Of a stretch of DNA of 64,000 nt, positions 407 to 20,305 are shown piece by piece. Location: positions 7,735 through 71,734 of the forward strand of contig JBAZJV010000004.1 of assembly GCA_041651095.1 (NCBI GenBank). The letters are read 5' to 3'. Position numbers and translations under genes: made by a program. Within the stretch, counting starts at the first letter, position 1; every line of letters begins with the position of its first letter. The DNA is from Patescibacteria group bacterium (lineage in GTDB: Bacteria; Patescibacteriota; Patescibacteriia; Patescibacteriales; UBA12465). The notes under the pieces were generated by a model. The model searched no databases. It saw only the letters and a program-made list of their open reading frames with translations, and was not told where the DNA came from.

Positions 407-1294
407 ATGATCAATCCCCGCTTTTTATTTCTTGGTCTCGGCTTATCGGCCATCGCCATCATCTATCTGATCATCTGGGCGCTCATGAAATCAGGACCGA
501 AGGCCTACCGTTTTATTAAATCCCTGGCCTTTTCTTTATGGCCAGCCTTGCGCCAGAACGAATATATCGCCGAATTCATCTACCAGCAACCCCGGCTGAA
601 CCATTTCATCAAGAAACGCTCTAGCCGCCAATCCTTCGTGGGCCTGCCGCTCACTATCCTGGGTCTGGCCTTTTTATATGTACTATTCGCCTTCCTGGGG
701 CTGGTAGAAGATTTTATCACTTCCGACCAGATTGTCGCCATCGACTCTCGGCTGAACAATTTCCTGTTGCTTTTCCGCTCCGAGCATTATGTTAAGATCT
801 TCCTGGCTATTACTACGCTCGGACGCGCCAGAGTCATTATCAGCTTGTTGCTGGCCGCCAGTCTGCTCTTCTGGCTATGGCGCAAAAGAGCCTATATCCT
901 GCCGGCCTGGTTGAGCTTGGGCGGAGCCAGCTTGCTTAATTTCCTTAGCAAATGGGCTTTCCACCGGCCGCGGCCGGCGTTTCCGGTCTATATTGAATCC
1001 AATTTTTCTTTTCCGAGCGGCCATGCCACCGTCGCTGTTGCAGCCTACGGCTTCCTGACTTATTGTTTGTTAAGAAATACTAAAAAATTGCCGAATCGCG
1101 CTTTAGTCTTCCTGGCTGGTTTACTGATTATCGCGGCTATTGGTTTTTCCCGACTATATCTCGGCGTACATTATTTGAGCGATGTCCTGGCCGGCTATCT
1201 TTTAGGCGCTCTTTGGCTGACCATGGGCATCAGCCTAACTGAATGGCAGCTGGACCGGCAAAAGCGCCAAGAGACGGAGGCTGCGCCTAATTAA
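407..1294 (+). CDS. PAP2-family phosphatase (undecaprenyl-diphosphatase / phosphatidate phosphatase-like) membrane protein
   Basis: PAP2 motifs KWAFHRPRP (KX6RP), FPSGHAT (PSGH), SRLYLGVHYLSD (SRX5HX3D); multiple TM helices. Confidence 0.7.
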   Translation: MINPRFLFLGLGLSAIAIIYLIIWALMKSGPKAYRFIKSLAFSLWPALRQNEYIAEFIYQQPRLNHFIKKRSSRQSFVGLPLTILGLAFLYVLFAFLGLVEDFITSDQIVAIDSRLNNFLLLFRSEHYVKIFLAITTLGRARVIISLLLAASLLFWLWRKRAYILPAWLSLGGASLLNFLSKWAFHRPRPAFPVYIESNFSFPSGHATVAVAAYGFLTYCLLRNTKKLPNRALVFLAGLLIIAAIGFSRLYLGVHYLSDVLAGYLLGALWLTMGISLTEWQLDRQKRQETEAAPN

Positions 1295-1330
1295 AAACCC
1301 GGTCTTTTGGATCGGGTTTATTGTAAAATT
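1295..1330 (+). terminator. rho-independent terminator (AAACCCG...CGGGTTT + T-rich)
   Basis: inverted repeat 1295-1301/1313-1319 followed by ATTGTAAAATTTT. Confidence 0.45.
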
Positions 1331-1339
1331 TTGAGAGAT

Positions 1340-1588
1340 TCACCGGAAACTGGCACATAAACAATTGGCCTCCCACTCTTCTGCGCTATTATCCGGTGCA
1401 GCCCTGTAAATCATTTCTGCCAGCATGACATCTCTAAGCTCTTTAGCTCGCCGGCACAAAAATGTAAATGCCTTACTTTTTAGGGCGCCGGCTCGACGGG
1501 ATTTATAAACTTTTAAAACGAAATAAAATGTCCCGTAAGGGTGCACGATGACAAAACAATTCACCAGAAAGAAAAAAAATTTTTTCAA
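1340..1588 (-). CDS. hypothetical protein
   Basis: ORF only; no recognisable motifs. Confidence 0.2.
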   Translation of the reverse strand: MKKFFFFLVNCFVIVHPYGTFYFVLKVYKSRRAGALKSKAFTFLCRRAKELRDVMLAEMIYRAAPDNSAEEWEANCLCASFR

Positions 1589-1616
1589 GTGACCTCCGCT
1601 TTTAATGTTTTAGATG

Positions 1617-1901
1617 TTAATTAATTAGCGCTAAACAAATATCGCAAAGATAGCCTAAGCCGACTCTGTGGTATCTTAAAACGAACAATTTGCGCTCCGC
1701 TTCTTTACGAGCGATGCCTTTTTCGGGAAAGGAAAAATAAATCGCTTCAATTTCCGAAATAGTATTAACCATGTTGAGCTGCCATAAAGAATATTTATCC
1801 CAGGCAACCAGTATGTTTCTTTCTTCTTCGCCGCCGATAGTAGCGGCCAGATAAGCCTGTTTGTAGGCTTCAGCGTTTGGCAAATTGATTTCTTGAATCA
1901 T
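1617..1901 (-). CDS. hypothetical protein
   Basis: ORF only. Confidence 0.3.
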   Translation of the reverse strand: MIQEINLPNAEAYKQAYLAATIGGEEERNILVAWDKYSLWQLNMVNTISEIEAIYFSFPEKGIARKEAERKLFVLRYHRVGLGYLCDICLALIN

Positions 1902-2023
1902 TTTTACCTCTATTGTTAATTTACGAAATAATGACTTATTTTATAAAAAAATAATAACATAACTTTATAGTTATGTCAATGATATAAAAATCCTAAATAT
2001 TCAAACAATTTACACGTCTTTTT

Positions 2024-2731
2024 TTATTTCCCGTACCTTCTCTGCCGCCGGCCGTATTCCCTGATCGCGGCAGCCAGATCCCGGCCGCTAAAATCCGGCC
2101 AATGTTTTTTTACGAAATATAGCTCGCTATAAACCGACTGCCAGGTCAGGAAACCGGACAAACGCTGTTCGCCGGAAGTCCTGATGATCAGATCCGGGTC
2201 GGGCCAGCCGGCCGAGTCCAGATTCCGGCTGATCAACTCCTCGGTAATCTTGGCCGGTGATATTTTTCGGGCCGCCAGTTTCCGCATCGCGCGAATGATT
2301 TCGTCGCGGCCGCCGTAGCTCAAGCAGATATTCAGGACGCCGCGTTGATTATTTTTCGTGGCCTGTTCCACGCGCTGCATGGCCGTTTGCAAGGAGCGGT
2401 CAAAATCCTGCCGCCGGCCGAAAAAATTCAGCCGTATTCCCTGGCGGGCCAGATCGGCTGTGCCGGTACCGACGAACAGCCTGAACAATTTTAAAAGATA
2501 AGCGACTTCCGATTTCTGTCGGCGCCAATTTTCAGTGGAAAAGGCATAGACAGTCAAAACTTTCACGCCCTGCTCAAAGGCGGCGACGGCAATCTCCTTG
2601 ACCTTATCGTAACCGCGGCGATGTCCCTCCAGAGTCGGCAAACCGTGCGCCCGAGCCCAGCGACGATTGCCGTCTAAGATAATACCGATGTGAATAGGCG
2701 TTTTCAGTTGGCTGGCTTTGTTAGGTGTCAT
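2024..2731 (-). CDS. uppS: undecaprenyl-diphosphate synthase (isoprenyl transferase)
   Basis: IGIILDGNRRWA signature and full-length UppS-like sequence (YAFSTENWRR, RTSGEQRLSGF). Confidence 0.9.
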   Translation of the reverse strand: MTPNKASQLKTPIHIGIILDGNRRWARAHGLPTLEGHRRGYDKVKEIAVAAFEQGVKVLTVYAFSTENWRRQKSEVAYLLKLFRLFVGTGTADLARQGIRLNFFGRRQDFDRSLQTAMQRVEQATKNNQRGVLNICLSYGGRDEIIRAMRKLAARKISPAKITEELISRNLDSAGWPDPDLIIRTSGEQRLSGFLTWQSVYSELYFVKKHWPDFSGRDLAAAIREYGRRQRRYGK

Positions 2732-2783
2732 ATGTAATAGCCGATCTTATTGGTAGCGACGACGGCCGACAATGCCGCCGGTT

Positions 2784-4082
2784 TTACGAAGACAAAGCTT
2801 TCAGATCCTCTCTGACCGCGGCAGCTAATAATTCCGGGCTGGCGAATTTTTTGACCTCGCGCAATTTACGGCCGACCGTCACCTGCACTTCCTGGCCATA
2901 GATATCTTCATGAAAATCCTGGATCAAGATTTCCAAAGATGGCGGCTCGTTAAAAACATCCTTGAAGCCGAAATGCAGCAAGCCACGATAATTTTCGCCC
3001 TTGACCACGATATCCGCCAGATAAATGCCGTGCGGCATGTCCAGGTCGGTCTTGTCCAGATTGGCCGTCGGGAATCCTAGTTCCCGGCCCCGGCCCTGGC
3101 CGCGGATGACCCGGGCCGTAAAAGCGATCTTCGGCTTATCCAGATAGGAAACCTGGAAGAAGGCCCACAGCAGAACCAAGGCGGCGACGATCTGTACCGG
3201 CGTCAGATAATTGTGATTGAAAACATAGTCCATGATCAAGGCGGAAAATGGCCAGAACAATTCCAGGATGGTGGAAGCGGAAGCGGATACCCGGCGCAAG
3301 CCGAAATAATAGACGAACATGGCCCCGGCGCCGCTCGTGAACAGGATCAAAACGAAGAAACGCCAATGCATGGGCGTAATCTGGCTGAAACGGAAGACAT
3401 CGCTGTTTAATAGGATAAGAACCAACCCCATGACCGCGGTGACACCGAAGCGCAAAGCGGCCACGGCCCTATAGTCCAAGTGGTTGGCGATGCGCTTGCC
3501 GAACACCGTGGAGGAGCCGAAAGCGAAGGCGGCCAGGAAGGAAAACAACGCCGCGTTATGCCACCAATTAATCTCAAAAATATTCAGTCCGGTCTTGGCA
3601 AAAGCGATAAAATAGCTAGCGACGATGGCGATCGCGGTCCAGGCATAGAAACGCTTCGGCAATTTTTCGCCCAAGATAATACGCGCCAATAACAGAGCGA
3701 AAATCGGTTGAAGTTTCTGCAGAATCACGACCGTCGCGAAAGTAGTCTCGCCGTCAAAAGCAGCGAAGAACGCCTTGGTAATCATGATTGTTCCGATAAG
3801 TCCACCAAACAAGCTGATCCAAATAATCGCGCCCCAGCTTTTGCGGCTTAGCGCTTTGATCTTATTCCAATAGATAAAAATAAACGGCGACAAGACTAAG
3901 AATCCAAGGGCATGTTCGACAAACACGACCAAAGGAGCCGGCAGGATATAAAAGCGAGGACGGATGAACAGGCCGTCGATGCTCCACAACAAGGCGGCCA
4001 ACATGATGGCCAAACTACCTAATACCGTATATCTGCTCCGGTTGGCAAATAATTTTTTCATGGTTTTATAATTAATTTCCAC
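2784..4082 (-). CDS. fusion protein: N-terminal 10-TM EamA/DMT-family transporter + C-terminal riboflavin kinase (RFK) domain
   Basis: C-terminal ~125 aa RVIRGQGRGRELGFPTANLD...EILIQDFHEDIYGQEVQV matches RibF C-terminal riboflavin kinase hallmark (GRGR.LGFPTAN); N-terminal 300 aa is a polytopic EamA-like membrane domain. Confidence 0.75.
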   Translation of the reverse strand: MEINYKTMKKLFANRSRYTVLGSLAIMLAALLWSIDGLFIRPRFYILPAPLVVFVEHALGFLVLSPFIFIYWNKIKALSRKSWGAIIWISLFGGLIGTIMITKAFFAAFDGETTFATVVILQKLQPIFALLLARIILGEKLPKRFYAWTAIAIVASYFIAFAKTGLNIFEINWWHNAALFSFLAAFAFGSSTVFGKRIANHLDYRAVAALRFGVTAVMGLVLILLNSDVFRFSQITPMHWRFFVLILFTSGAGAMFVYYFGLRRVSASASTILELFWPFSALIMDYVFNHNYLTPVQIVAALVLLWAFFQVSYLDKPKIAFTARVIRGQGRGRELGFPTANLDKTDLDMPHGIYLADIVVKGENYRGLLHFGFKDVFNEPPSLEILIQDFHEDIYGQEVQVTVGRKLREVKKFASPELLAAAVREDLKALSS

Positions 4083-4143
4083 TGTCAGACATCGATGAAC
4101 AAAACAGCCCGCCGGGCGGGCTGTAATTTGCCGCCATCTGCGG

Positions 4144-4437
4144 CTATTTCCTTTTCGGCTTCTTATTTGCGCTCGCCTGGACGACTCGCTGCCAATTCTG
4201 CTTGCCGATAGAGTAGCCGAGGATAAGGCCGATAACCAGCAAAGCGAATTTGACTAGCGGCGACAGGTAAGAATTCACGCCCAGGAAACGATAGGCCTGC
4301 GGCACCAGGCCCTGAGCCAGGATCTGCCTGATATACAAGGCTTCAAGCAGACTCTGGAAAATGGCGACCGGCACCAGCGTTAAAAAAATAAAAAACAGGA
4401 AGTAGTTAAGCTTATCGATCTTCAGGTTTTGGAGCAT
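4144..4437 (-). CDS. small hypothetical membrane protein
   Basis: two predicted TM helices, Lys-rich C-terminus. Confidence 0.35.
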   Translation of the reverse strand: MLQNLKIDKLNYFLFFIFLTLVPVAIFQSLLEALYIRQILAQGLVPQAYRFLGVNSYLSPLVKFALLVIGLILGYSIGKQNWQRVVQASANKKPKRK

Positions 4438-4505
4438 ACTTTAATTTTTAAGTTTTGCCCTTTTTTTGAATTATAACAAAGATTAGATTAAAGCTCAACT
4501 TTATT

Positions 4506-4534
4506 TTGACAAATTGCCCTGATTATATTAATAT
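4506..4534 (+). promoter_or_regulatory. putative sigma70 promoter TTGACA-N17-TAATAT upstream of hpt
   Basis: hexamers read directly; GGAGG SD precedes ATG at 4603. Confidence 0.4.
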
Positions 4535-4602
4535 AGAGCATTACTTTAAAAACATCGTTCTTAAAACCAGGCCATTACCGTGGCCGCATTACGGAGGATA
4601 TT

Positions 4603-5192
4603 ATGAATACCATTTCAACCAAAAACGGCACTATCACCATCAACGGCGACCTCTACCGCCGATTATTCAGCGAAGCGCAAATCATGTCTAGAGTTGGCGC
4701 GCTGGCAGCAGAGATCAAAAAAGATTATATATCCGAGGAGCGAACGCCGATATTATTATTAGTACTAACCGGCGGATTATACTTTGGATAGATCTATCCA
4801 AAGCTTTGTCAGATATCGGATTAAATCACCACCTGGACACCGTGGGGCTTAAACGGTATAGCGCCGATGAAAAAGGCGGCGCCGTAGAATTGCTGAGCCG
4901 GCCGCACGCCGATTTGGGCGACCGCGATGTCATCGTGGTAGAAGACGTGGTCGATAACGGCGCGACCATGAATTTCTTGCATGACTACCTGTCATATCTG
5001 CCCATCAAACCACGCTCCGTAAAATACTGCTTCCTGGGCATCAAGAATAATCACGGTCCGTTGAAATTTTCCACCAACTATCTGGGTTTCGATATCGAAC
5101 CAGCCTGGATCGTCGGATACGGTTTAGATTCCGGGCAAAGCTACCGCGGTTTAAGAGATATTTACCAAAAAATTGAAAACCCGGAAGCATAA
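4603..5192 (+). pseudogene. hpt: hypoxanthine phosphoribosyltransferase, interrupted by a single-nucleotide frameshift near 4783-4787
   Basis: frame 1 (4603-4791) gives Hpt N-terminus ...ILLLVLTGGLYFG*; frame 0 continues WIDLSKALSDIGLNHHLDTVGLKRYSADE...DRDVIVVEDVVDNGATM (PRPP-binding motif); join requires a 1-nt indel in the TTT run at 4783-4785. Confidence 0.8.
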
Positions 5193-5203
5193 ATTTCGCT
5201 CGC

Positions 5204-5240
5204 AAAACCTCGTCTTTACAGGCGGGGTTTTTAATTTTTA
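5204..5240. terminator. bidirectional rho-independent terminator between convergent hpt and the M23 peptidase gene
   Basis: AAAACCTCG...CGGGGTTTT stem flanked by A/T runs. Confidence 0.45.
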
Positions 5241-5259
5241 CTAAATACAGCTCAACCGG

Positions 5260-6024
5260 TTATTTTATATATTTCAAAGGATCCAACCAATCCGCTAAGT
5301 CCGCCCGGTCGGCAACATAGCCGCGCAAATTTATACTAGGCCCTTGATGAATGCCGAGGTGCAGGTGTTTGCGCTCGCCGTCAGTTTCCTGGCTATACCC
5401 CTGCCCTAGGATGGCAATCTGATCGCCGGATTCCAAAGTATCGTTAAGCTTGTGGCTGATCGAGGAAAGTTTTAGGTGGCCGTAAAGCACGGTAACACTT
5501 GCCCCATCCAATTGGCATCGTTCCACGGCGACGCCGCCGTAACCATTAACATAATTCTTATAAACCAAGAAACCGCTACAAACCGCATGGATTGGCACTT
5601 CGTCATCATCTTCTCCGGTAAAAATTTCAAAATCCGCTCCCGTGTGATAGCCATAAAACTTTTCCGGACTGACGGGCGAATCTTGCGGCGAAACTTTTAA
5701 GCCAAACGGTTTTTTGGTTACCCGCTTTGGCGCATCACTTAGCGGCCAACTTAAAGAAGCGGCGGCCGGAGTAACTTGACTAGCGGGAATTATCTGGCTC
5801 ATTGTCGTTTGTCCGTCGGCCGACACTGGCCGGTTTGGCGCTCCCGCGAGATTCGAAGCAATGTCAGGAGCTTGATTACCGGACGGCGCCTTAGTGTGAT
5901 TAAAAAATAATAATCCCCAGGCTGCTAACATCAGGATTATTATGATTAATCCGAATATCAAATCCTTATTTTTCATAAAGCTGTCCACGGCCAGCAGCCC
6001 TAGCGGCCAACAGTCCGCCCGCAA
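5260..6024 (-). CDS. membrane-anchored M23/LytM-family metallopeptidase
   Basis: HTGADF (HxxxD) and HLHLGIH (HxH) M23 motifs; N-terminal TM anchor, Pro/Ala-rich linker; true start may be the internal MKNKD (5976). Confidence 0.75.
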   Translation of the reverse strand: MRADCWPLGLLAVDSFMKNKDLIFGLIIIILMLAAWGLLFFNHTKAPSGNQAPDIASNLAGAPNRPVSADGQTTMSQIIPASQVTPAAASLSWPLSDAPKRVTKKPFGLKVSPQDSPVSPEKFYGYHTGADFEIFTGEDDDEVPIHAVCSGFLVYKNYVNGYGGVAVERCQLDGASVTVLYGHLKLSSISHKLNDTLESGDQIAILGQGYSQETDGERKHLHLGIHQGPSINLRGYVADRADLADWLDPLKYIK

Positions 6025-6125
6025 CCGTATCCCCAGAACAGCCGAAATATGACCAATCTGGCTTTGCCATGTTAATCATTTATAGTCTATAAATTTAATA
6101 ACAATATCCAGTTATTGTTCAGGCG

Positions 6126-6506
6126 CTAGCGATTACTTCGACCAGAGGTGCCGAGGGCTGATTTTTTATAGCGCCAACTAAGGAGGTAAAGCAGCCCGAC
6201 AATCGCCGACGGCAAGGAGATGGCGGCATACCAGCTCCAAGGCCGTCCCCAGCCGACCATCACGATGTAGAAAACGGCGAAACCGAAGAAGATGACCGCG
6301 CCGACGAGGTCATACTTCCAGGCTACTAAGACGGCCGCCAGCAGAATAAGCATGGGGATCAGGTGGATTAAAAACGGCAGAACGGCGCTCCAACCGCTAT
6401 ACTCCGTAAAAACGTCCAGCGCAAACAAGGACAAAAACAACACGAAGCCCAGGCTGAGAATCCGGGGCAGCCAATAAATAGCTTTATGGCTGATTTTTTG
6501 GTCCAT
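6126..6506 (-). CDS. hypothetical membrane protein (4 TM)
   Basis: hydrophobic helices only. Confidence 0.4.
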   Translation of the reverse strand: MDQKISHKAIYWLPRILSLGFVLFLSLFALDVFTEYSGWSAVLPFLIHLIPMLILLAAVLVAWKYDLVGAVIFFGFAVFYIVMVGWGRPWSWYAAISLPSAIVGLLYLLSWRYKKSALGTSGRSNR

Positions 6507-6600
6507 AGGTTTTTATGTTAAATATTAAGCAGCTTATTAACATTATACCAAATATAACACCGGAAGACGATTGCTGCGCCATCAGGCCCAAGTATTAAAA

Positions 6601-6632
6601 AAGAAGGGCGTTTGAATTCCCTTCTTGGTTTC
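6601..6632 (-). terminator. rho-independent terminator downstream of the 6644-6850 gene
   Basis: AAGAAGGG...CCCTTCTT stem with T-run on minus strand. Confidence 0.4.
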
Positions 6633-6643
6633 GTTAAAAAATA

Positions 6644-6850
6644 TTAAATGTCGCCGAGCATTTCGACATAATCTGTCAGCCTGGCTTTGCCGCCAGCGAC
6701 GATTTCCGGGGGCCAACCTAGCTGCTTGATTTTGGTCTTAGTATTTTCACTTAAGCTGTCATACCAAGCACTATCCCCAGACTGTCCGCCGAGTTGTTGC
6801 TGTTCTTTATCGATTTGATCGATAAATTGCTTTGTTTCTACTTTGTTCAT
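6644..6850 (-). CDS. hypothetical protein (68 aa)
   Basis: ORF only. Confidence 0.3.
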   Translation of the reverse strand: MNKVETKQFIDQIDKEQQQLGGQSGDSAWYDSLSENTKTKIKQLGWPPEIVAGGKARLTDYVEMLGDI

Positions 6851-6885
6851 TTTGATCTCCTACGCTTTGATTATAATTTAGTTTT

Positions 6886-8142
6886 TTATACCTTTTTCAT
6901 CAACAAAATAGCGCTATTTCTATACCGGTCAACCCAATTATCAAGATAGGCGAAATCATGACCGGCTAATTCACGGACGACCTGCTTAACCTGGTATTTC
7001 TTTGACCTAAAGACTTCGATGCCGCCGTAATGCAAGACAATGAAACCGGTTTTTGGTTCATAACTCCATTTGGCCCGGCGATAATCGATCTGGCTGCTTT
7101 TTACTATTTGATTGACGGCGAAATTCAAATAATAAGGGTTAGCGCGGTACTTCTTAAAGGTTCGCGCAATATGATTCCTCAGCTGGAAACCAAGCAACAG
7201 CTTATCTCCCGGCCGGGTATTGCTCTGAAAAACCTTAAAGATTTCTGCTTGGTCACGAGAATTTCCAATCGTGTTCCCGACGCAGATATGAATGCTGTGC
7301 TTGGTCTGACCGAGATCCAGACGGGATCGATCCAAATTCTGAAATATATCGCAAATCAGATTGGCGCTAATATTTTTTCGCGGATATTCGATCTGCTTAG
7401 CTGCCAGTTTGCCGGCAAAAATATCCAGGAAGTCCTGACTGACATCAATGGCATTAAGTTTGACCGGCGACCGCGATTCGATCTGCCAGCGCACCAATTC
7501 CATCTCGGTTTCGGCCGTACCGATACCGTAGTAGACTTGGGTGTGATTGGCAATCTGCGGATAAATGGACAACCGATATTGCTCCAGGATAGCCAACTCG
7601 TTATTCCCGCACTTATAATGTACGGGGTTACAGAAAGCTACCATCAACCAGTCGCGGGGATTACGATACCACTGTTCGCCTTGTAATTCATGGCGACTCA
7701 ATTGGTCATTCAGCCTTTGATTTAATATTTCTTCCTTTTTGCGGCTAGCATAGGCTAGCGGCGCCAAAGCGATGACCGGCTGCGGTTTCAGGTATTCGCC
7801 AACTTTCCGGCTCTTGATGACCAGCCTGGTTTTAACTGGCACGGTTCGCGTGTCGTCAAAGCGATCAAGCCCGGATCTCATTTTTATGGAATCAGGATCA
7901 GAACCTGATGGGAAGGCATATTCCATCATATCCTTGGCTATTATTTTCCCGTGCCGCACCAAATAAGTGCCTAATGGACTGGATTCGATCACTTCACCGT
8001 CGCCCAATATATAGTGAAGATATGGACCGGAATATAATTCGGAATAATTCACCGTATCAATGGAGAATAAGCTGAGCAAGAAAACGAAAAAAACAAATAA
8101 GGCTTTAATGGCCCGTACTGCCTGAGTTTTGAACTTTTTCAT
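6886..8142 (-). CDS. EgtD-family (histidine N-alpha-methyltransferase-like) SAM-dependent methyltransferase with N-terminal signal/membrane anchor and ~130-aa extra N-terminal domain
   Basis: C-terminal half parallels the EgtD family by recall (YYGIGTAETEMELV ~ ELGSGTSEKT; ICVGNTIGN ~ FLGSTIGN; PGDKLLLGFQL ~ PGDSLLLGTDL; YRRAKWSYEPKTGFIVLHY ~ FEHVAKWNSDEERIEMWL); recall-based, needs an HMM check. Confidence 0.5.
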   Translation of the reverse strand: MKKFKTQAVRAIKALFVFFVFLLSLFSIDTVNYSELYSGPYLHYILGDGEVIESSPLGTYLVRHGKIIAKDMMEYAFPSGSDPDSIKMRSGLDRFDDTRTVPVKTRLVIKSRKVGEYLKPQPVIALAPLAYASRKKEEILNQRLNDQLSRHELQGEQWYRNPRDWLMVAFCNPVHYKCGNNELAILEQYRLSIYPQIANHTQVYYGIGTAETEMELVRWQIESRSPVKLNAIDVSQDFLDIFAGKLAAKQIEYPRKNISANLICDIFQNLDRSRLDLGQTKHSIHICVGNTIGNSRDQAEIFKVFQSNTRPGDKLLLGFQLRNHIARTFKKYRANPYYLNFAVNQIVKSSQIDYRRAKWSYEPKTGFIVLHYGGIEVFRSKKYQVKQVVRELAGHDFAYLDNWVDRYRNSAILLMKKV

Positions 8143-8236
8143 TTTGACCTCTTTCGGTTTATTGATTGTTAAAATACTTTTTTAGTTTCCTATTAATTTA
8201 CAATATTAATGATTTTATGTCAATAATAATTAAAAT

Positions 8237-8285
8237 AAAAAGGCGGGCATCAAAGATACGCCGCCTTATTTGTTGTCCTGTAGAT
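8237..8285 (-). terminator. rho-independent terminator of the small Cys-rich peptide gene
   Basis: minus strand AAGGCGGCGTATCTTTGATGCCCGCCTT then TTTTATTTT. Confidence 0.5.
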
Positions 8286-8291
8286 ACAAGA

Positions 8292-8414
8292 TTAACGAGT
8301 GGCCCCGGTTATATTGTTCCATTCCGATTTGCCGTTCTTACAACGACACCAACCAGTAAACCGACCTCCTTCACATTCGTATTCGTAACGACCAATTGTT
8401 ACCCAGTAGTACAT
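8292..8414 (-). CDS. unannotated 40-aa Cys/Trp/Tyr-rich peptide MYYWVTIGRYEYECEGGRFTGWCRCKNGKSEWNNITGATR
   Basis: strong SD GGAGGAGG 4 nt upstream of ATG (8414), stop TAA (8292-8294), own terminator and upstream promoter; below ORF-track cutoff. Confidence 0.5.
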   Translation of the reverse strand: MYYWVTIGRYEYECEGGRFTGWCRCKNGKSEWNNITGATR

Positions 8415-8498
8415 GGGTCCTCCTCCTTGATTATACGACTTTGTTAAAGAAATTAGTTAACTTTACTAAATCTACTGTTATATTGCTAACATTATTTG

Positions 8499-8527
8499 AT
8501 AATAACATATAAAATATATTATGTCAA
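8499..8527 (-). promoter_or_regulatory. putative promoter TTGACA-N17-TATTAT for the small peptide gene
   Basis: minus-strand hexamers (plus tgtcaa 8522-8527, ataata 8499-8504). Confidence 0.35.
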
Positions 8528-8548
8528 TTAAACTAATTTTATATTGTA

Positions 8549-8577
8549 TTGACAACAATCAACTTATATGATATAGT
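8549..8577 (+). promoter_or_regulatory. near-consensus sigma70 promoter TTGACA-N17-TATAGT for the 8637 gene, divergent from and back-to-back with the peptide promoter
   Basis: hexamers read directly; GGAGG SD before the GTG start. Confidence 0.45.
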
Positions 8578-8636
8578 AACCAGTTACTCATGTTCTTAAA
8601 AAATTAAATAACAATAAACAAAAAACGGAGGAACCC

Positions 8637-9824
8637 GTGAAAATATTATTAGCTTTCGTTAAAGTGGCGGTGGTTTTCCTGTTTATCTGGAACACCGGCA
8701 TTTTCTCTTATTTGACGCGGGGCATCTCTAAACAGGAAGTTTATGACCCCGCAACTACTCAAAAAATCCGGACTTTCTGTGTCCAACGGTATCAGGCGGC
8801 CAAAGCTCAGATAGATGCCGGCGGTACTTACTCGCTAGCTGAATACTTCACTGATCTGTCAGCCATCAAGAAACTACAGGACAGCCTGCATTGCCATGGC
8901 GGCTTCAATTGCGGCTATGGCGGTATTAATGAGTTGTGGGCGCTGTCCTTTGCTCAAAGCAAAGATCTCAGCCGGGAAGAAATCGACGCGGCTAGAGAAA
9001 AGTACCTGACTTATCAGCCAGAATCATTAAAAAGCGATCCGGCATTTTCGTGGCTCAAGCTCTTGATGACTATTCTCCATGGACTGACGACCTTGTATCT
9101 TAAGAATCTTCCCTGGGCGCTCTTAATGATGTTAATTTGGCTTAAAGAAGAAAACGCGGAACAAAACAAGCAGCTCCGTTTGAGAAGTCCACTAAGTTTC
9201 TTGATTAGCCTGATTCTCTACCCCATATTTTTCACCGTCGTCTTCATCCAAAAGTTCAAAAGTATCGGGCGCGGTTTTCTGGCAGCGGCGAGCATCCAGC
9301 AGACCAAAGAGAAATTCTTCAGCCTGTTGTCGCCGGATGAACTAACAGCGATCAGGCAATTTGCCAAAAGCAATATCAAGTTGCAGACTTTCCGGCAGAG
9401 TTTAGTCGCGGAAGGCTTAGTAAGCAGACGATCATTCGCTCTGGCTTCCCTATCACTAATCTTGTGCCTGTTTATCATTAATAATAGCCAGGCGAGCCAA
9501 AACACAAAAATTCCGACCAAAGCCCCGACCATTACCGTACTTGATGTCGGAAGCGGCAACTTAGACAAGCCGCCGAATCTTAATGATGAGGTACCAGCTC
9601 AAAGTTTTGCTGTTTTAACGGCAACGCCGCAGTACTTTGTTAAAGAAATTGGTAGAATCTATGAACAGAGGATAATGTCTCTGTCAACGCGAATACGAAA
9701 AATAGAACATATTCCTATACTCCGGTTAGTAAACCAGTCAATCAACTATTTACTAACCAAAAAGGGAAAGGAAAATGAAAACTATTATTTCAATATTGAT
9801 AGCATTAGCTATATTTACCAGTAA
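8637..9824 (+). CDS. hypothetical polytopic membrane protein (395 aa), low-GC
   Basis: multiple TM helices, GTG start with SD; no known domain. Confidence 0.5.
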   Translation: MKILLAFVKVAVVFLFIWNTGIFSYLTRGISKQEVYDPATTQKIRTFCVQRYQAAKAQIDAGGTYSLAEYFTDLSAIKKLQDSLHCHGGFNCGYGGINELWALSFAQSKDLSREEIDAAREKYLTYQPESLKSDPAFSWLKLLMTILHGLTTLYLKNLPWALLMMLIWLKEENAEQNKQLRLRSPLSFLISLILYPIFFTVVFIQKFKSIGRGFLAAASIQQTKEKFFSLLSPDELTAIRQFAKSNIKLQTFRQSLVAEGLVSRRSFALASLSLILCLFIINNSQASQNTKIPTKAPTITVLDVGSGNLDKPPNLNDEVPAQSFAVLTATPQYFVKEIGRIYEQRIMSLSTRIRKIEHIPILRLVNQSINYLLTKKGKENENYYFNIDSISYIYQ

Positions 9825-10614
9825 CTCTCTAGCACAAACTGATTCCGCCATCACCGCCAGCAAATATTTAGGCGTCTTATATACCGGTACCTACGATCAG
9901 GACACCAACCTCAAGAATAATGTCAGCCTCAGGCTGGGAAGCGACGCGGTCCTGCCGATAATGGATCAATTGAACCTGAACGTCAGGGGCGGCTACGAAA
10001 CCGGAACGGGCGGCAATTCAGCCTTCGGCAAATTCTATCTGGAATGGTCACCGGAATTTCTGAAATGCTATTTAGGCTACGCTCCCAGACCGATTACCCT
10101 GGTTTTCAAGCCAGCGCCGCTTAGCGCCGACGGACAGCTAGGGCGTTCCGCTTTAAAGCCTATCCCTGGATCCAATCTAGGCGCCTATGCAGCCAAAGAG
10201 ATCATTCCCGGGAAATTAAGCCTGATGGCCGGTTCATATTTCCTGGCACCGTCTAAATCAGTAGAATGGGACGGGTCAATAAAGTACAAGCCGGGAGCCA
10301 TAGAATTCCTATTGAGCGGCTATACCAGCCGAATCAATAGAGGCTTGGCCGTTGGATTCAAAACCGCGGCAATCTCGGTAACCGGGTTCACGACCAGTGA
10401 TTCGCTCTGGACGGCTTGGCTCAATGTCAAGACCAAGGTGCTCAATCCTTATGTCAGCATCACTTATAACCGCAACCGACATAAGTATGGGCAGATAGAA
10501 CTGGGCTGGGATAAGATCTTTTCCCTGCCCTACGGTGGAGCCAAGGTAAGAGCGGGTATGAGCTATGAATGTCAAGCTAAACTCCTTAATACTTTTGTAC
10601 AAATGTTCTTATAA
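9775..10614 (+). CDS. hypothetical secreted beta-rich protein (signal peptide, C-terminal ...VQMFL)
   Basis: N-terminal signal peptide MKTIISILIALAIFTSNSLA; alternating amphipathic pattern; 50-nt overlap with upstream gene. Confidence 0.5.
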   Translation: MKTIISILIALAIFTSNSLAQTDSAITASKYLGVLYTGTYDQDTNLKNNVSLRLGSDAVLPIMDQLNLNVRGGYETGTGGNSAFGKFYLEWSPEFLKCYLGYAPRPITLVFKPAPLSADGQLGRSALKPIPGSNLGAYAAKEIIPGKLSLMAGSYFLAPSKSVEWDGSIKYKPGAIEFLLSGYTSRINRGLAVGFKTAAISVTGFTTSDSLWTAWLNVKTKVLNPYVSITYNRNRHKYGQIELGWDKIFSLPYGGAKVRAGMSYECQAKLLNTFVQMFL

Positions 10615-12663: not shown

Positions 12664-13026
12664 CTAGCGCCCGCCGATCCGGCCCAGATGCGTGTCTTTG
12701 AACCCGCTCTCCAATTTCAAACCGTAACCCAGAGCCCGGTCCAGACCGATATGGCCCAGCCAAATAAGCGCTAAGCGCACGGCGGTATCTGAAGCGGCGA
12801 TCACCCCCCAGGCTAAAAGCAGGCTCGGCAGCAGGTAGCTATGCCCGATATTATAAACCAGCGCCCCGATCTTATTGTTGATGAGATAGCCGGCCATAAA
12901 GAGGTCCGCGGCCAGCAGCAAAAGCACGAACCATAGAAGATTGAACCCGAGCGCCCAATAGACAAGCGCCGAAATCAGGAATATTCCCAATCCCTCTATT
13001 CTCTCGTAACGAACGATGGTCGGCAT
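12664..13026 (-). CDS. small membrane protein (DUF4260-like)
   Basis: 3-4 TM, GHIGLDRALGYGLK motif recalled from DUF4260. Confidence 0.35.
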   Translation of the reverse strand: MPTIVRYERIEGLGIFLISALVYWALGFNLLWFVLLLLAADLFMAGYLINNKIGALVYNIGHSYLLPSLLLAWGVIAASDTAVRLALIWLGHIGLDRALGYGLKLESGFKDTHLGRIGGR

Positions 13027-13083
13027 ATATTTATTATCCGTTATTTATTATCTATTATTTCTCGGCTAGCGAAACTAGGCCCG

Positions 13084-14955
13084 CTAGTCAACAAAGTTTT
13101 CCGTTTCATCGAATTGGCCGGTAATAGAGCTGTTCCCCGCCGCCCGTTTCAGGATCACCTGCGGTTCACCGCGATAGGTTATATCAGCGTTATCGGCCGC
13201 GGCCGCTTCCAGCCTGTCCTTCACCCAGATCTCAGCGTCGGCAAAATCCCCGGCATCGACTTTCACCTGATCGGCCGCGAAGTTATAGCCGTCAAACTGG
13301 CTGTGGCCCTGCAGGCTGACTTCTAAATTCTGGGCGCTGCCCGCTAAATCGGCATCACTAAAGATATCGAGCGCTAACTTCACGGACTGAGCCGAGAGAT
13401 CGTCGGCCGAGAGGTCGGCCGAGCCGTCCATTTGGATATCCAGTTTGCCGGCCGAGCCGCTTAATCGTAATTCGCTGCCCACGCCGCTCAGGCTGGCGCT
13501 TAAATCCTGACCTAACAATTCCAGCCGGGCGCTCGCGGTTTCACCTAGACTGACATAAAGCGGCTGATCAAAGCCTTGCAGCTCGGCCGAGGAACGATTG
13601 ACGCCGACGAAGGAGTCTAGGCGGGGCATGACGATCTCGCCGCTGATCCGCCGGTCGAAGCAGAAGACGCAGATGCCCCGGTTTTCCCGCGGCCGCTGGC
13701 TTATTTGCAATTGGCCGTCCTCGATCTTGAAAGACAGGCGGCTCAGGTCCTCCGGCCGGCCGGACAGATTGATCGCGAAGGCATCCCCTTTGACCACCCG
13801 GATATCCTCCTGGCCGCTCAAATACAGCTTATTAAAATCCTGGTAGCCAAAACTCTGGCTGATTGTCTGCTGCCGGTTGATCTCTTCCACCCTGGTCTTG
13901 ACCAAAGGCAGAAAGTTAACGGCCGCGACCGTGAAAACAGCGATAGCCGCCATCCAGACGCCGATCAGAATGCCGGAACCGACCAAATTTAAAGAATTTT
14001 TCCGCCGAATAGCGGTCAGGCCCAGAGCGGATAAAAAGATAAGCGGCAGAGCGCAAACCAGATATAAAGAAATCACGCTGACGTAATAATTGGGCTGGCT
14101 GGCGATTTCTGCCAGAGGCAGATCCGAGACCAGATACGGCGAATTGATATTAAAAATCATTAAGGCCGCGGCAATGCTCAGGCCCAGGATCCCGAATAGC
14201 GAGGCGATCAGAAAGACCGTCCCGATCAGGACGCTGATTACCGGCAACAGGAAACTTCCGGACCGCTTCAGGAAGAGAAAAATCGCTTCTATGACCCGGA
14301 CCGGAAAATTCAGCACCCGGCGCAAAGTGCCGTTGCGGCGCAGCTGGCCGATCGCTTCCCGCCCCTCCGCCTCGATCAGCTTGGATTTTTCCTTTACGGC
14401 TTGCTGGATTTCCGCCAGATTGACCGGCTTGCCGCGCATCTCTAATTTTTGGGTGCTGGTGGTCGCTTTCGGCATAGCGATCCAGAAGACGATGTAAGCG
14501 AGGATGCCGAGGCCGTTCGCCAGAGTCAGGATGACGAAAACCAGACGGACAAAGACCGGATCAATGCCGAAATAGGCGGCGATGCCGGAAGCGACGCCGG
14601 CGATGATCACGTCATCCGTATCGCGGTACAAGCGGCGCCGGGCGCCCGACGTTTCGGCCACGGTTCGAGCCGGTTCAGCCGCCTCTTCTTCCGAATCGGT
14701 TATTTCCTCTACCGTCCCCATGACCCTAATGACCTCTTCCACGTCCGCCAGGGTAATGATCTGTTTCGCGTCCTTGAGCTGACGGCTGAATTTTTCCGCG
14801 ATGCTGGATTCTATGTCGGCCATAATTTCCGCTTCTTCTTCCGGCGCGACGTAATGCTGCTTGATGGAATCCAGATAGCCCTGCAAGCGCTGATAAGCCG
14901 CTTCTTCCAGGCTGAAAGCCAGGCCGCCGAGGGTGATGTTGATACTTTTTTGCAT
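13084..14955 (-). CDS. PspC-domain membrane protein with C-terminal DUF4097/DUF2807-like beta-helical (putative adhesin) domain
   Basis: PspC motif RRRLYRDTDDVIIAGVASGIAAYFGIDPVFVRLVFVILTL; repetitive LSG/DG beta-helix C-terminus. Confidence 0.65.
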   Translation of the reverse strand: MQKSINITLGGLAFSLEEAAYQRLQGYLDSIKQHYVAPEEEAEIMADIESSIAEKFSRQLKDAKQIITLADVEEVIRVMGTVEEITDSEEEAAEPARTVAETSGARRRLYRDTDDVIIAGVASGIAAYFGIDPVFVRLVFVILTLANGLGILAYIVFWIAMPKATTSTQKLEMRGKPVNLAEIQQAVKEKSKLIEAEGREAIGQLRRNGTLRRVLNFPVRVIEAIFLFLKRSGSFLLPVISVLIGTVFLIASLFGILGLSIAAALMIFNINSPYLVSDLPLAEIASQPNYYVSVISLYLVCALPLIFLSALGLTAIRRKNSLNLVGSGILIGVWMAAIAVFTVAAVNFLPLVKTRVEEINRQQTISQSFGYQDFNKLYLSGQEDIRVVKGDAFAINLSGRPEDLSRLSFKIEDGQLQISQRPRENRGICVFCFDRRISGEIVMPRLDSFVGVNRSSAELQGFDQPLYVSLGETASARLELLGQDLSASLSGVGSELRLSGSAGKLDIQMDGSADLSADDLSAQSVKLALDIFSDADLAGSAQNLEVSLQGHSQFDGYNFAADQVKVDAGDFADAEIWVKDRLEAAAADNADITYRGEPQVILKRAAGNSSITGQFDETENFVD

Positions 14956-14964
14956 ATGATCTAA

Positions 14965-15327
14965 TTATTTAAACTTCTTAACCAGCGAGTTAATCGATTT
15001 ATCCAGCGACCGCCAGGTGAGCGTCAGCTGTTTCAGGGTCTCTTTGCCCTTAGGCGTCAGAGAATAATACTTGCGCGGCGGCCCGCTCGGCGATTCTTCC
15101 CAATCATAGGACAAAAGGCTGGAGTTCTTCAGGCGGGTCAGGAGCGGATAGACCGTTCCCTCCACGACCAAGAGGTCGGCTTCCCGCAAAGCGCCCAAAA
15201 TATCCGAACAGTAGACCTTGCCCCGCGAAATAATGAGCAGGATGCAAAATTCCAAGGTGCCCTTGCGCATCTGCGCCCGGGTGTTTTCCGTATCGATTTG
15301 ATGCTGGCTAGTCATAGTTATCCACAA
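14965..15327 (-). CDS. PadR-family transcriptional regulator
   Basis: winged-helix PadR signature ...GTVYPLLTRLKNSSLL...PRKYYSLTPKG. Confidence 0.75.
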   Translation of the reverse strand: MWITMTSQHQIDTENTRAQMRKGTLEFCILLIISRGKVYCSDILGALREADLLVVEGTVYPLLTRLKNSSLLSYDWEESPSGPPRKYYSLTPKGKETLKQLTLTWRSLDKSINSLVKKFK

Positions 15328-15499
15328 CAGTTAATAAGCTATTTTTATTATAACACCTAATACTATGTAATACAAGGTAGCTGAGGAAAAATGGCCAGCG
15401 ACCGGAATCGGCCACCGGCGGCGCCCAGGCGATCCGGCTTATTTAAAAACCCCGGAATAAATTCCAGGGTTTACTGACGGGACAAATTTGAAAGACCTT

Positions 15500-15919
15500 T
15501 TAAGAGGACGGCTCGGCGTTGTTATTGGCGATCAGAGCCCAAACTTCCTCCTCATAACCTGCTTGCACCAATGCCAGATTCTTACAATGACGGGAGTAAA
15601 TCGGGGTACGGGATTCGATATACTGTTCAGGAATAGAGTCGAATTCCCTGGTGTGTCCCATCCAAATGGCGATGTTTTTACGGTCGTTGCCAAAATAAGA
15701 AGAATCAACCAGCTTCAGGATCATTCTGGACCCATGAATCTTTTTGCAATTATAAATCGCGAAATTAGTCCTTTCAATAAGTAGATCAGCCGTCACGATA
15801 TCACCAGGTTCGACATCGCTTTCCCTGGATACCAGGTGATACTTCTGGTTGTACATCTTACTGGCCAGGACATAACCGTCTCCCCGACCGTAAGTCACTT
15901 CACGAATTTCAATCATCAA
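15500..15919 (-). CDS. hypothetical protein with weak resemblance to the C-terminal half of YfcE-type metallophosphoesterases
   Basis: GHT motif in IAIWMGHTREFD; N-terminal DxHG absent; low GC. Confidence 0.25.
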   Translation of the reverse strand: MMIEIREVTYGRGDGYVLASKMYNQKYHLVSRESDVEPGDIVTADLLIERTNFAIYNCKKIHGSRMILKLVDSSYFGNDRKNIAIWMGHTREFDSIPEQYIESRTPIYSRHCKNLALVQAGYEEEVWALIANNNAEPSS

Positions 15920-16090
15920 GACCTCCGTAGTAAGTTTATCCCTCGGTTAGTTATCATTGTCTCGGCTATGAGGGACCAAGTTTGCCGATTTTTTTAAAAG
16001 AAAAGTAATAAAAAATAATACCACGAGGATATTATTTTTGTCAATTCCTTAGCGAATATAGCCTTTACTTCAAGATAAATTTGAATAACA

Positions 16091-16978
16091 TTATTTAATG
16101 ATAAGGCTTTTTAGAATCTGCTCAAAAATAGGGGCATTGTCTTCCCATTTGCTTGCTAAGCTATTAAAATTAAAAATCCAAATATCGTCGCCGCGGCCTG
16201 TTACGGCCACGGTCAAGATTTTAAAGTCCGCATTATTTTGCCTGACATAGGCTTCTGTCGCCAAGGCCGCCTGGCCGTTTATGGTCACGCTATTTTCGTT
16301 ATCAAACACGATGCCGGCCACGGATTTCTTTATCTCGTTTTTCAAGTTGTCAAAATATTCATTCAATGTGCCGCCTGATACCTTATCCCGGCCGACTGAT
16401 AAATACGTTCTGAAATCATTGAACGGCGCTTCGTTGATATTGATATAAATTGACTGCCCGTCTCCCGCTGTAGCCGCCTGCCAACCCGCCGGCAAAGTCA
16501 GACTATAATCTGAAGTCTTTATTTCCATCGGTTTATCCGTCTGCTGATCCGCCCCTGTCTGTGGCTGCCCACCGAGCTCTTTTTTATAGACAGCCACGAT
16601 CTGATCACAAGAGACGTCGGAAATACGATCTCGGCGATTAAATTGGATCACTTTGTAGACCAAACCCTGGGACGAATCTTCAATTTTATCTATCGCCCCC
16701 AATCTGATAACGCCGCCACTTTTAAAAGCGATGATTTGATTGATTGCTAGGTCATCTAAAACAAAACATTTATCAAAGATAACGGTCTGCCCGCTCTTGA
16801 AATTCGGCTCCATTGAATCGCCCGCGACTCTGAGAGGATAGGAACAGGCCAAGGTCGACACCTTATTATCATCCCCCAAGATACCCATAATATACCTAGC
16901 GGGCATGAAACGAAAAGCCAAGAACAATAAAACCAGCAAGGCGATGATAATTGATAAGATGACATAGACCTTTTTCAT
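16091..16978 (-). CDS. membrane-anchored signal peptidase I (S26)-like domain protein with extra C-terminal domain
   Basis: box B AGDSMEPNF, degenerate boxes C-E (GQTVIFD, VYKV, FNRRDRISDVS); N-terminal TM. Confidence 0.4.
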   Translation of the reverse strand: MKKVYVILSIIIALLVLLFLAFRFMPARYIMGILGDDNKVSTLACSYPLRVAGDSMEPNFKSGQTVIFDKCFVLDDLAINQIIAFKSGGVIRLGAIDKIEDSSQGLVYKVIQFNRRDRISDVSCDQIVAVYKKELGGQPQTGADQQTDKPMEIKTSDYSLTLPAGWQAATAGDGQSIYININEAPFNDFRTYLSVGRDKVSGGTLNEYFDNLKNEIKKSVAGIVFDNENSVTINGQAALATEAYVRQNNADFKILTVAVTGRGDDIWIFNFNSLASKWEDNAPIFEQILKSLIIK

Positions 16979-17071
16979 ATAGTTGATTTTATGAATAAAT
17001 GTCTCTTTATATTATATCAAAAAAACCATTAAAATAAAAAAATAGCAAAATAATATTCTTCTTAAGTAAAA

Positions 17072-17100
17072 GAAAAAACGAGTTCTTCACTCGCTTTTTC
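17072..17100 (-). terminator. rho-independent terminator immediately 3' of tRNA-Asn
   Basis: minus strand AAAAAGCGAGTGAAGAACTCGTTTTTTCTTTT. Confidence 0.4.
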
Positions 17101-17105
17101 TAGAG

Positions 17106-17407
17106 CTCCCGGGGTGGGATTCGAACCCACGACCAATTGGTTACACTTATCCTCATGTTTCCATGCGGGGTGGACTATATCATCATCCGCTGAATACGGA
17201 TGCGGGGCGCTTCGGGCCGCCCTATGGGCGGACCTACTCCCTTTCGGGATAGTCTCTGAACCTTCTCTATAATAGAGCTTGGCTGCTGATTACCATATCC
17301 TTTCAGATTTAGGCTTCCAGCAATTCACCTCGTTTTCACCCTCTGATTGCTCAAAGGGGCTGCGTTTATGTTCACAGCCAACTGCGCTACCGCTGCGCTA
17401 CCCGGGA
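17106..17407 (-). tRNA. tRNA-Asn(GUU) interrupted by a 230-nt group I intron (exons 17374-17407 and 17106-17143; no encoded CCA)
   Basis: exons fold into cloverleaf: acceptor UCCCGGG/CCCGGGA, D-arm GCGC-AGCGGTA-GCGC, anticodon stem GUUGG/CCAAU with loop CUGU|UAA, variable UGGUC, T-arm GUGGG-UUCGAAU-CCCAC, G73; near-identical to E. coli tRNA-Asn outside the stems. Confidence 0.85.
17144..17373 (-). other. group I self-splicing intron (IC3-like) in anticodon loop between U35 and U36
   Basis: R element GUUCAGAGACUA (plus 17250-17261), S element GAUAUAGUCC (17172-17181), Q-like AAUCAGCAGCCAAG, IGS GCAGCC pairing exon GGCUGU with U.G at splice site, terminal G. Confidence 0.8.
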
Positions 17408-17505
17408 ATATTAAGTTGTTTTTCGGGTTGGCGCTCCTGGCGCCCGGTCCCAAAAATAAAATATTTCAAACGAAATATTTACTAATATGATAGCAAATAC
17501 CGGAG

Positions 17506-17979: not shown

Positions 17980-17980
17980 T

Positions 17981-19006: not shown

Positions 19007-19018
19007 AGGTTTTGATGA

Positions 19019-20296: not shown

Positions 20297-20305
20297 AGTG
20301 ATAAG

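Follow-up and report, generated by a model that had tools for sequence, protein, structure and literature searches.

A 64,000-nucleotide stretch of a Patescibacteria group bacterium (contig JBAZJV010000004.1; hereafter the window, meaning the whole stretch of DNA that was analyzed) encodes a single protein in which a drug/metabolite transporter (DMT) of the EamA type is joined to a riboflavin kinase (RFK). We propose, with a probability of roughly 75%, that the two halves form a one-polypeptide module for riboflavin salvage, in which the DMT domain would take up riboflavin and the RFK domain would trap it as flavin mononucleotide (FMN). Both component families are well known and the fusion architecture is visible in domain databases; a full-text literature search found no description of an EamA–RFK fusion.

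Coordinates refer to the window, and residue numbers follow a 432-codon open reading frame (ORF) unless stated otherwise. This ORF, which is apparent from both the ORF list and the sequence, runs without interruption on the minus strand from a GTG codon at 4082 to 2784. A sequence-only reading of the window had given 2784..4082 as the gene; the frame is indeed present and uninterrupted, but the GTG start is doubtful. Translation from GTG 4082 would lengthen the protein by 7 residues relative to ATG 4061, and the latter is probably the true start, because public gene calls begin there, the first ~16 residues of the resulting 425-aa form hold no conserved positions in the family consensus, and only ~20 nt separate the GTG from the end of a terminator-like hairpin on its upstream side (Table 1). 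An identical 425-aa product, P0001, is called from ATG 4061 in ENA/NCBI, on a 233,933-bp ENA contig and on an independent Logan contig, and the same continuous frame was read on L002, an independently assembled contig of the same sequence. Both sequence strings quoted in the earlier reading, RVIRGQGRGRELGFPTANLD and EILIQDFHEDIYGQEVQV, occur in the ORF.

The architecture is widespread. A search of 5.8 billion proteins returned 583 homologs, the best 120 of which were examined for Pfam domains; all 120 contain both EamA and Flavokinase, with lengths of 405–451 aa (one entry has 377 aa). These best homologs come from Patescibacteria, for example Falkowbacteria, Kuenenbacteria and Parcubacteria, and their annotations are generic (‘riboflavin kinase’, ‘EamA family transporter’ or ‘DMT-like permease’). 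Genomic loci were searched with an 8-sequence alignment, a broad 33-sequence alignment being too divergent. With one genome per GTDB species this gave 569 relatives, and the best 80 of the 569 comprise 56 loci that are fused under translation table 11, one that is fused under genetic code 25 (SR1), one split by a frameshift, one cut at a contig end and 21 stand-alone transporters. Four SR1/Gracilibacteria loci (L042, L054, L068 and L083) require code 25 and look fragmented under table 11; read with code 25, the SR1 locus yields a fusion of 452 aa, and each of the three from Gracilibacteria yields a stand-alone transporter of 312 aa. In metagenomes, 35 of 80 loci are fused.

Within the Patescibacteria, fused copies are found in Falkowbacteria, Parcubacteria, Saccharimonadales, Magasanikbacteria, Nomurabacteria, Moraniibacteriota and Paceibacterota, and they also occur in archaea-labelled bins (DPANN). 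A fused copy from Woesearchaeota (NQU98807.1) lies on contigs of up to 641 kb and has TrmB-family neighbors on the contig examined; regulators of this family are typically archaeal. Stand-alone relatives belong to Marinimicrobia/Fidelibacterota, Cloacimonadales, Bacteroidota, Lentisphaeria and Gracilibacteria. In Patescibacteria and DPANN it is the fused form that prevails.

Given that the window comes from a metagenome assembly and that the two halves lie in different frames at the related locus L041, the fusion could in principle be an assembly, frameshift or gene-calling artefact that joins adjacent genes. This explanation is excluded by the occurrence of the same frame on the independent contig L002, in each of the 120 best homologs and in the genomes of dozens of species, and by a linker that is short, conserved and part of a junction modeled confidently by AlphaFold2 (AF2). 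The uninterrupted fusion assumed in the sequence-only reading is found again, with the frame intact, on hundreds of independent contigs.

The transporter half is a genuine EamA/DMT protein with 10 transmembrane (TM) helices, as had been proposed for the N-terminal ~300 residues. Two stretches match EamA (PF00892) in Pfam (E 2.3e-23; 83 bits, with the cutoff at 28), hydropathy analysis delimits 10 hydrophobic segments, and the AF2 model, which was built on 52 homologs (mean confidence, pLDDT, 85.7; predicted TM-score, pTM, 0.84), consists of 10 long helices, a linker of ~5 residues and then a beta-barrel domain. When the model was compared with the PDB using Foldseek, the matches to its first 310 residues were the DMT transporters YddG (5i20; TM-score 0.72–0.75 on the target) and LicB (7paf; 0.78), the triose-phosphate translocator (TPT; 5y78) and SLC35 carriers. 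NCBIfam returned a weak, sub-threshold match to a generic amino-acid/amine carrier model. Polar residues that are invariant in the family occur in the first half of the transporter, among them a QKLQP motif in TM4 and Glu132 (alignment numbering). Lysine and arginine residues are concentrated at the N-terminus, directly after TM10 and in the loops that follow TM2, TM4, TM6 and TM8. This distribution agrees with the N-in/C-in topology to be expected of a DMT protein with 10 TM helices. It would place the RFK domain in the cytoplasm, a location that the earlier reading had put forward for checking.

The linker between the two halves is short and conserved, as judged from column conservation in 52 homologs; in the AF2 model the last helix extends to model residue 306 and a strand begins at 312, with a pLDDT of ~80–86 across the junction. 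The domain that follows clearly belongs to the RFK family. Its match to Flavokinase (PF01687; E 4.5e-26, 91.9 bits against a cutoff of 19.6) covers profile positions 5–119 of 124, and among PDB sequences it matches Thermotoga maritima RibF (1mrz, 6e-13) and human RFK (1nb0, 1e-7), so that bacterial RibF is its nearest relative in sequence. Foldseek superimposed the last 120 residues on human RFK (1q9s) with a root-mean-square deviation (rmsd) of 2.2 Å and on the RFK module of Corynebacterium ammoniagenes (5a89) with 2.1 Å; over ~120–127 residues, the matches to 1q9s, 5a89 and 1n06 have rmsd values of 2.1–2.8 Å. The C-terminal kinase domain that had been recognized from the sequence is therefore borne out by profile, fold and motif matches alike.

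The catalytic residues of the RFK domain align with those of the human and T. maritima enzymes. Conservation was counted in 52 fused homologs of 59–83% identity, where the glycine-rich loop, the PTAN motif, the GxY flap, Glu384 and an arginine are essentially invariant (Table 1). Glu384 is presumably the RFK catalytic base, equivalent to human E86 and C. ammoniagenes E268. Judged from these counts, the catalytic residues are under strict purifying selection, and their near-invariance speaks for an active enzyme and against a relic.

The kinase domain could instead serve as a cytoplasmic flavin sensor or regulatory domain. On binding riboflavin or FMN it would then control the gating of the transporter by feedback, with no net phosphorylation. 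RFK modules are strongly inhibited by product and substrate, as in the FAD synthetase (FADS) of C. ammoniagenes, and the very short linker would suit allosteric gating. Furthermore, a Falkowbacteria genome (CG10_big_fil_rev_8_21_14_0_10_43_10) carries two DMT–RFK fusions in tandem (locus L037, 2965-4257 and 4256-5560), which are 49% identical to each other and have the altered PTAN motifs ATIN and NTAD, thus suggesting that catalysis is dispensable in at least some members. A pure sensor would, however, be expected to lose its catalytic residues. Those that perform the chemistry (Glu384, Thr339, Asn341 and the GxGRG loop) are invariant or nearly so in the 52 homologs, which makes a sensor without kinase activity quite unlikely.

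As the sequence-only reading also noted, no FAD-synthetase module is attached. NCBIfam RibF models match solely through their C-terminal kinase part (~positions 185–300), far below their cutoffs, and residues 1–185 of Escherichia coli RibF, which form the FMN adenylyltransferase (FMNAT) module, gave no match in the window at E<=10. The kinase shares Pfam family, fold (~2.2 Å) and motifs with the kinase module of RibF/FAD synthetase (T. maritima TM379, C. ammoniagenes FADS) and with human RFK. In bacterial RibF, however, the kinase normally follows an FMNAT domain (PF06574), whereas here it follows a membrane transporter; owing to the absence of the FMNAT module, the fusion protein is not a RibF.

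The cargo of the transporter, the least secure point in the argument of the sequence-only reading, was approached through its stand-alone relatives, which give independent support. A search with the transporter half covered 1.84 billion cluster representatives and yielded 972 clusters at E<=1e-3, some of them EamA proteins of more distant relationship; from 53% identity down, fused (~410–455 aa) and stand-alone (~300–320 aa) proteins interleave. Five stand-alone proteins that are 51–53% identical to the window transporter domain over ~290–300 residues have a direct link to riboflavin. At locus L086, a full-length FMN riboswitch (RF00050, 116 bits) lies 47 nt upstream of the gene, and a GC hairpin with a T10 tract, a ribosome-binding site and the start codon complete an arrangement that reads as a classical FMN ‘off’ attenuator. 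FMN riboswitches are also located immediately upstream of the genes at L166 (111 bits) and L168/L169 (110 bits). At L056 (Cloacimonadales chromosome OZ245797.1) and L167, both in Cloacimonadota-type genomes, the transporter is the final gene of a ribD-ribE-ribBA-ribH operon, which at L167 is preceded by an FMN riboswitch. Riboflavin-transporter relatives of the DMT half thus exist.

These stand-alone proteins are close to the fused ones. When the L086 protein was used as a query, the top matches after itself and two stand-alone homologs were fused Patescibacteria proteins with 55–61% identity, and in a rough neighbor-joining (NJ) tree computed without support values the five riboflavin-linked relatives form the sister group of the fused clade to which the window protein belongs. 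The riboflavin transporters RibU, RibM, RibN and ImpX were first recognized by the same two signs, riboswitch control and membership in rib operons (PMC4418817). Since the RFK fusion, the FMN riboswitches and the rib operons all point the same way, riboflavin can be predicted as the substrate with good confidence.

The first 18 stand-alone loci scanned, mostly from Marinimicrobia, have no riboswitch. At the 80 loci of a metagenome scan with the L056 transporter, neither rib genes nor an additional RFK gene were found within 4 kb, which restricts the rib-operon link to a narrow lineage (L056 and L167). A recurrent Marinimicrobia-type gene string was seen at L039 (2085-6047), L049 (1992-5979) and L004 (5102-9011). 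In it, an ORF of ~300 aa overlaps the start of the transporter gene, and genes for a cupin (mannose-6-phosphate isomerase C-terminal type), a UmuD-like S24 peptidase and a UmuC/DinB polymerase lie downstream; Pfam gave no clue to flavins in this string and no match for the ~300-aa ORF. As a separate observation, giant ORFs of ~11,050–11,090 aa with no Pfam match are found directly downstream of two of the riboflavin-linked transporters (L166 7532-12921+ and L167 8281-12942+). The genomes in question measure ~1.58 Mb, and in one the rib operon is arranged as on the L056 Cloacimonadales chromosome.

The Marinimicrobia neighborhood of cupin, UmuD and UmuC genes, which has no flavin link, could reflect a different cargo, be it an analogue of flavin, a compound resembling lumichrome or a metabolite of an unrelated kind, in which case the fusion would reflect something besides riboflavin salvage. 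EamA substrates are notoriously diverse, and the weak sub-threshold match to the amino-acid/amine carrier model points in the same direction. We give this explanation very little credence, as fusion to RFK is found in many lineages and in several separate branches of the rough NJ tree, and as three riboswitch-controlled monocistronic genes and two rib-operon genes encode homologs that are all 51–53% identical to the window transporter.

Transport in the opposite direction also has to be considered. The protein could export riboflavin or FMN made by the cell, or, like many DMT antiporters, it could take in riboflavin in exchange for a metabolite of the cell, one of the two partners being provided or consumed by the kinase. 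The closest solved structures are those of exporters and antiporters (YddG, TPT and SLC35), and the position of stand-alone homologs at the end of rib operons would also suit riboflavin secretion. The FMN riboswitches ahead of stand-alone homologs, and in particular the L086 aptamer with its intrinsic terminator, speak against this, since a design that is OFF when FMN is high is usual for an importer. The fused form moreover dominates Patescibacteria and DPANN, lineages that are generally described as lacking vitamin biosynthesis, and it is hard to see what a kinase that produces FMN in the cytoplasm would contribute to export. An exporter or exchanger is therefore highly improbable, and import is favored.

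A mechanism is proposed in which the 10-TM DMT/EamA domain would pass riboflavin across the membrane by alternating access and the RFK domain, tethered ~5 residues after TM10 on the cytoplasmic face, would phosphorylate the incoming riboflavin to FMN with ATP-Mg. As FMN is anionic, it would not be expected to exit via the carrier. Free cytoplasmic riboflavin would thus stay low and the inward gradient would be kept up at the expense of ATP, so that a facilitator-type carrier could become an accumulating uptake system by metabolic trapping. The direction of transport, the cytoplasmic orientation, the kinase activity and the functional coupling of the two halves are elements of this mechanism that we infer.

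Such trapping has a precedent in PnuC–NadR, as in other pairs of a vitamin facilitator and a kinase, where a facilitator moves an uncharged vitamin precursor, nicotinamide riboside, and a cytoplasmic kinase traps it as a phosphorylated product that cannot leave. PnuC and NadR are, however, separate polypeptides of unrelated families (the Pnu fold and the NadR kinase), whereas the present halves are covalently fused at 1:1. Facilitator-class riboflavin transporters have been seen only in organisms prototrophic for vitamin B2, whereas auxotrophs rely on transport of the primary active kind (PMC6593275). With a kinase built in, a facilitator would become sufficient for an auxotroph, and the distribution of the family is suggestive in this respect: the protein is mostly fused in Patescibacteria and DPANN, and stand-alone forms occur in lineages with a rib operon or an encoded pathway, namely at the Cloacimonadota loci and in Gracilibacteria, which are reported to encode riboflavin/FMN/FAD pathways (PMC9166423).

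Among known transporters, RibN (Rhizobium leguminosarum RL1692, Vibrio cholerae RibN) is the closest, a comparison made by description only. RibN, said to have been described by García-Angulo et al. in 2013, is reportedly a secondary carrier with two EamA domains. It is a riboflavin importer, in some members (alpha-proteobacteria) under FMN riboswitch control, and has been reported only in Proteobacteria and as a stand-alone protein (PMC4418817). In contrast, the clade described here occurs in Patescibacteria, DPANN, Cloacimonadota, Marinimicrobia and others, and most of its members carry a C-terminal RFK domain. The sequence-only reading had listed ImpX as a second DMT/EamA riboflavin importer. 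This is doubtful, as ImpX is described as a distant homolog of SLC52/RFT2 (PMC4418817) and the structures of the RFVT transporters are MFS/ENT-like (PMC12044054). Among the 50 Foldseek matches listed for the window model there is no identifiable RFVT/SLC52 riboflavin transporter, and all of the transporter matches are of the DMT type. Together with the description of ImpX, this argues, though only indirectly, against the window transporter being an ImpX member.

A riboflavin kinase with a partner other than FMNAT has been described in RbkR, a bifunctional riboflavin kinase/regulator in which the kinase is fused to a DNA-binding domain (PMC5397151). RbkR too acts in flavin homeostasis, including the control of riboflavin transporter genes. 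RbkR is described there as a soluble transcription factor, whereas here a bacterial ATP-type RFK is carried on a transporter. The kinase of RbkR belongs to the CTP-dependent archaeal type, which has an unrelated fold. The phosphotransferase system (PTS) offers a further likeness in its EIIC–EIIB proteins, where a permease is covalently joined to a cytoplasmic phosphoryl-transfer domain and the substrate emerges phosphorylated. The families are unrelated, and obligatory coupling via a relay driven by phosphoenolpyruvate is a feature of the PTS.

A more far-reaching version extends the PTS-like principle to this unrelated scaffold. Docked on the carrier at its cytoplasmic gate, the RFK domain would receive riboflavin directly from the inward-open site, such that release requires phosphorylation, which would amount to group translocation of a vitamin; at the same time the whole DMT clade, fused and stand-alone, would be an unnamed family of riboflavin transporters, distinct from RibN and ImpX, that has been exchanged between the candidate phyla radiation (CPR) and DPANN as a key adaptation to vitamin auxotrophy. 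We regard this joint proposal as tentative and rather unlikely.

Several observations weigh against the simpler reading of the fusion as a salvage module for uptake and trapping. Many DMT proteins export or antiport their substrates, and the fold therefore does not give the direction of transport; the positive-inside pattern on which the topology is based was judged by eye from hydropathy and the Lys/Arg distribution. The degenerate PTAN motifs of the L037 pair mean that not every member need be an active kinase, and they may reflect sub-functionalization or loss of kinase activity in one lineage. No RF00050 riboswitch was found upstream of the window gene in an Rfam scan of the window, or at L003, the sole other fused locus scanned, and the Marinimicrobia stand-alone copies lack both riboswitch and rib context. 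A comparison of the window, L003 and L171 revealed no conserved flavin-related neighborhood for fused copies. Finally, RibF residues 1–185 found no FMNAT among six-frame ORFs of the window or of ~165 loci, a result that stems from one query and small fragments and is uninformative genome-wide.

Table 1. Positions of the fusion gene, its parts and other features in the window. Fractions give the number of the 52 fused homologs in which a residue is conserved.
Feature	Position	Strand	Details and basis
DMT–RFK fusion coding sequence	2784..4061	-	425 aa from ATG 4061; stop TAA 2784-2786; ORF list and sequence, public gene call
Transporter moiety	3129..4061	-	aa 8-318; 10 TM helices, two EamA repeats; Pfam, hydropathy, AF2, Foldseek
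First half of transporter, TM1-5	3588..4028	-	~aa 19-165; approximate coordinates from hydropathy
Second EamA repeat, TM6-10	3156..3554	-	aa 177-309; best Pfam EamA stretch
Linker, ~5 residues (D-K-P-K-I)	3129..3143	-	between the end of TM10 and the first kinase beta-strand; AF2 and column conservation
Riboflavin kinase domain	2796..3128	-	aa 319-429; Pfam PF01687
Glycine-rich loop G328-x-G-R-G332			G328 and G332 each 52/52
PTAN motif P338-T339-A340-N341, RFK active site	3060..3071	-	sequence; aligned to human and T. maritima PTAN; T339 52/52, N341 51/52
GxY flap			G352 and Y354 each 52/52
Glu384, equivalent of the catalytic base	2931..2933	-	alignment to 1nb0/1mrz; 52/52
Conserved arginine R408			52/52
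Terminator-like hairpin	4104-4124	-	9-bp stem and T-tract; closes the gene for the small membrane protein and lies immediately 5' of the fusion gene
97-aa membrane ORF	4144-4437	-	directly upstream of the fusion gene; no Pfam match in public gene calls
Overlapping ORFs of 395 and 279 aa	8637-10614	+	no Pfam match in public gene calls
PF00391-only protein	17981-19006	-	PEP-utilising-enzyme mobile domain
Split tRNA gene	17101-17407	-	anticodon loop interrupted by a group I intron
Group I intron	17151-17384	-	Rfam RF00028, 88 bits
1532-aa ORF	30261-34859	-	glycosyltransferase family 9 segment at aa 1345-1461 is the sole Pfam match

The fusion gene adjoins the gene for the 97-aa membrane protein and UppS; the neighbors at L003 and L171 are unrelated to these. 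Apart from UppS, the housekeeping genes of the window encode sigma-70, DnaG, AspRS/AsnRS, ScpAB, RecO, SecY and ribosomal proteins, and no flavin genes accompany the fusion in the 64 kb. Proteins that match only PF00391, the mobile domain of phosphoenolpyruvate (PEP)-utilizing enzymes, recur near fusion genes: one is encoded in the window and two at L003 (2773-5247), and at the Woesearchaeota locus L171 the fused gene is surrounded by more than 10 PF00391 paralogs and TrmB regulators (430-10004 and 12913-21275).

Two other features of the window were recorded alongside. ARAGORN reported no tRNA in the entire window, and a tRNA gene is present whose anticodon loop is split by a group I intron. 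The P1 helix of the intron contains a U.G wobble at U17374, and a putative splice from 17374 to 17143 would yield a 73-nt tRNA-Asn(GUU). The ORF of 1532 aa carries its glycosyltransferase segment near the C-terminus, and its first ~1300 residues have no Pfam match.

Patescibacteria (CPR) and DPANN make up a large share of microbial diversity and are mostly uncultured, and they are thought to depend on partners for vitamins. The fusion probably lets such vitamin-dependent microbes import and trap riboflavin in one step, and it suggests riboflavin as a required supplement in culture media. It also acts as a ‘Rosetta stone’: in combination with the links to riboswitches and operons, it allows a substrate to be assigned to a large EamA clade whose annotations are generic, an assignment that extends to the stand-alone members in Cloacimonadota and Marinimicrobia. 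A compact module for uptake and activation could, in addition, aid flavin engineering. The prediction is not a conceptual surprise, but it is clean, well supported, experimentally tractable and relevant to CPR/DPANN auxotrophy. It may account for the supply of an auxotroph by a carrier of the facilitator type, which is unseen for the known facilitator-class riboflavin transporters (PMC6593275). A riboflavin capture-and-trap protein that is present in most of the best-matching species genomes would provide a testable mechanism for the acquisition of flavin cofactors in these lineages.

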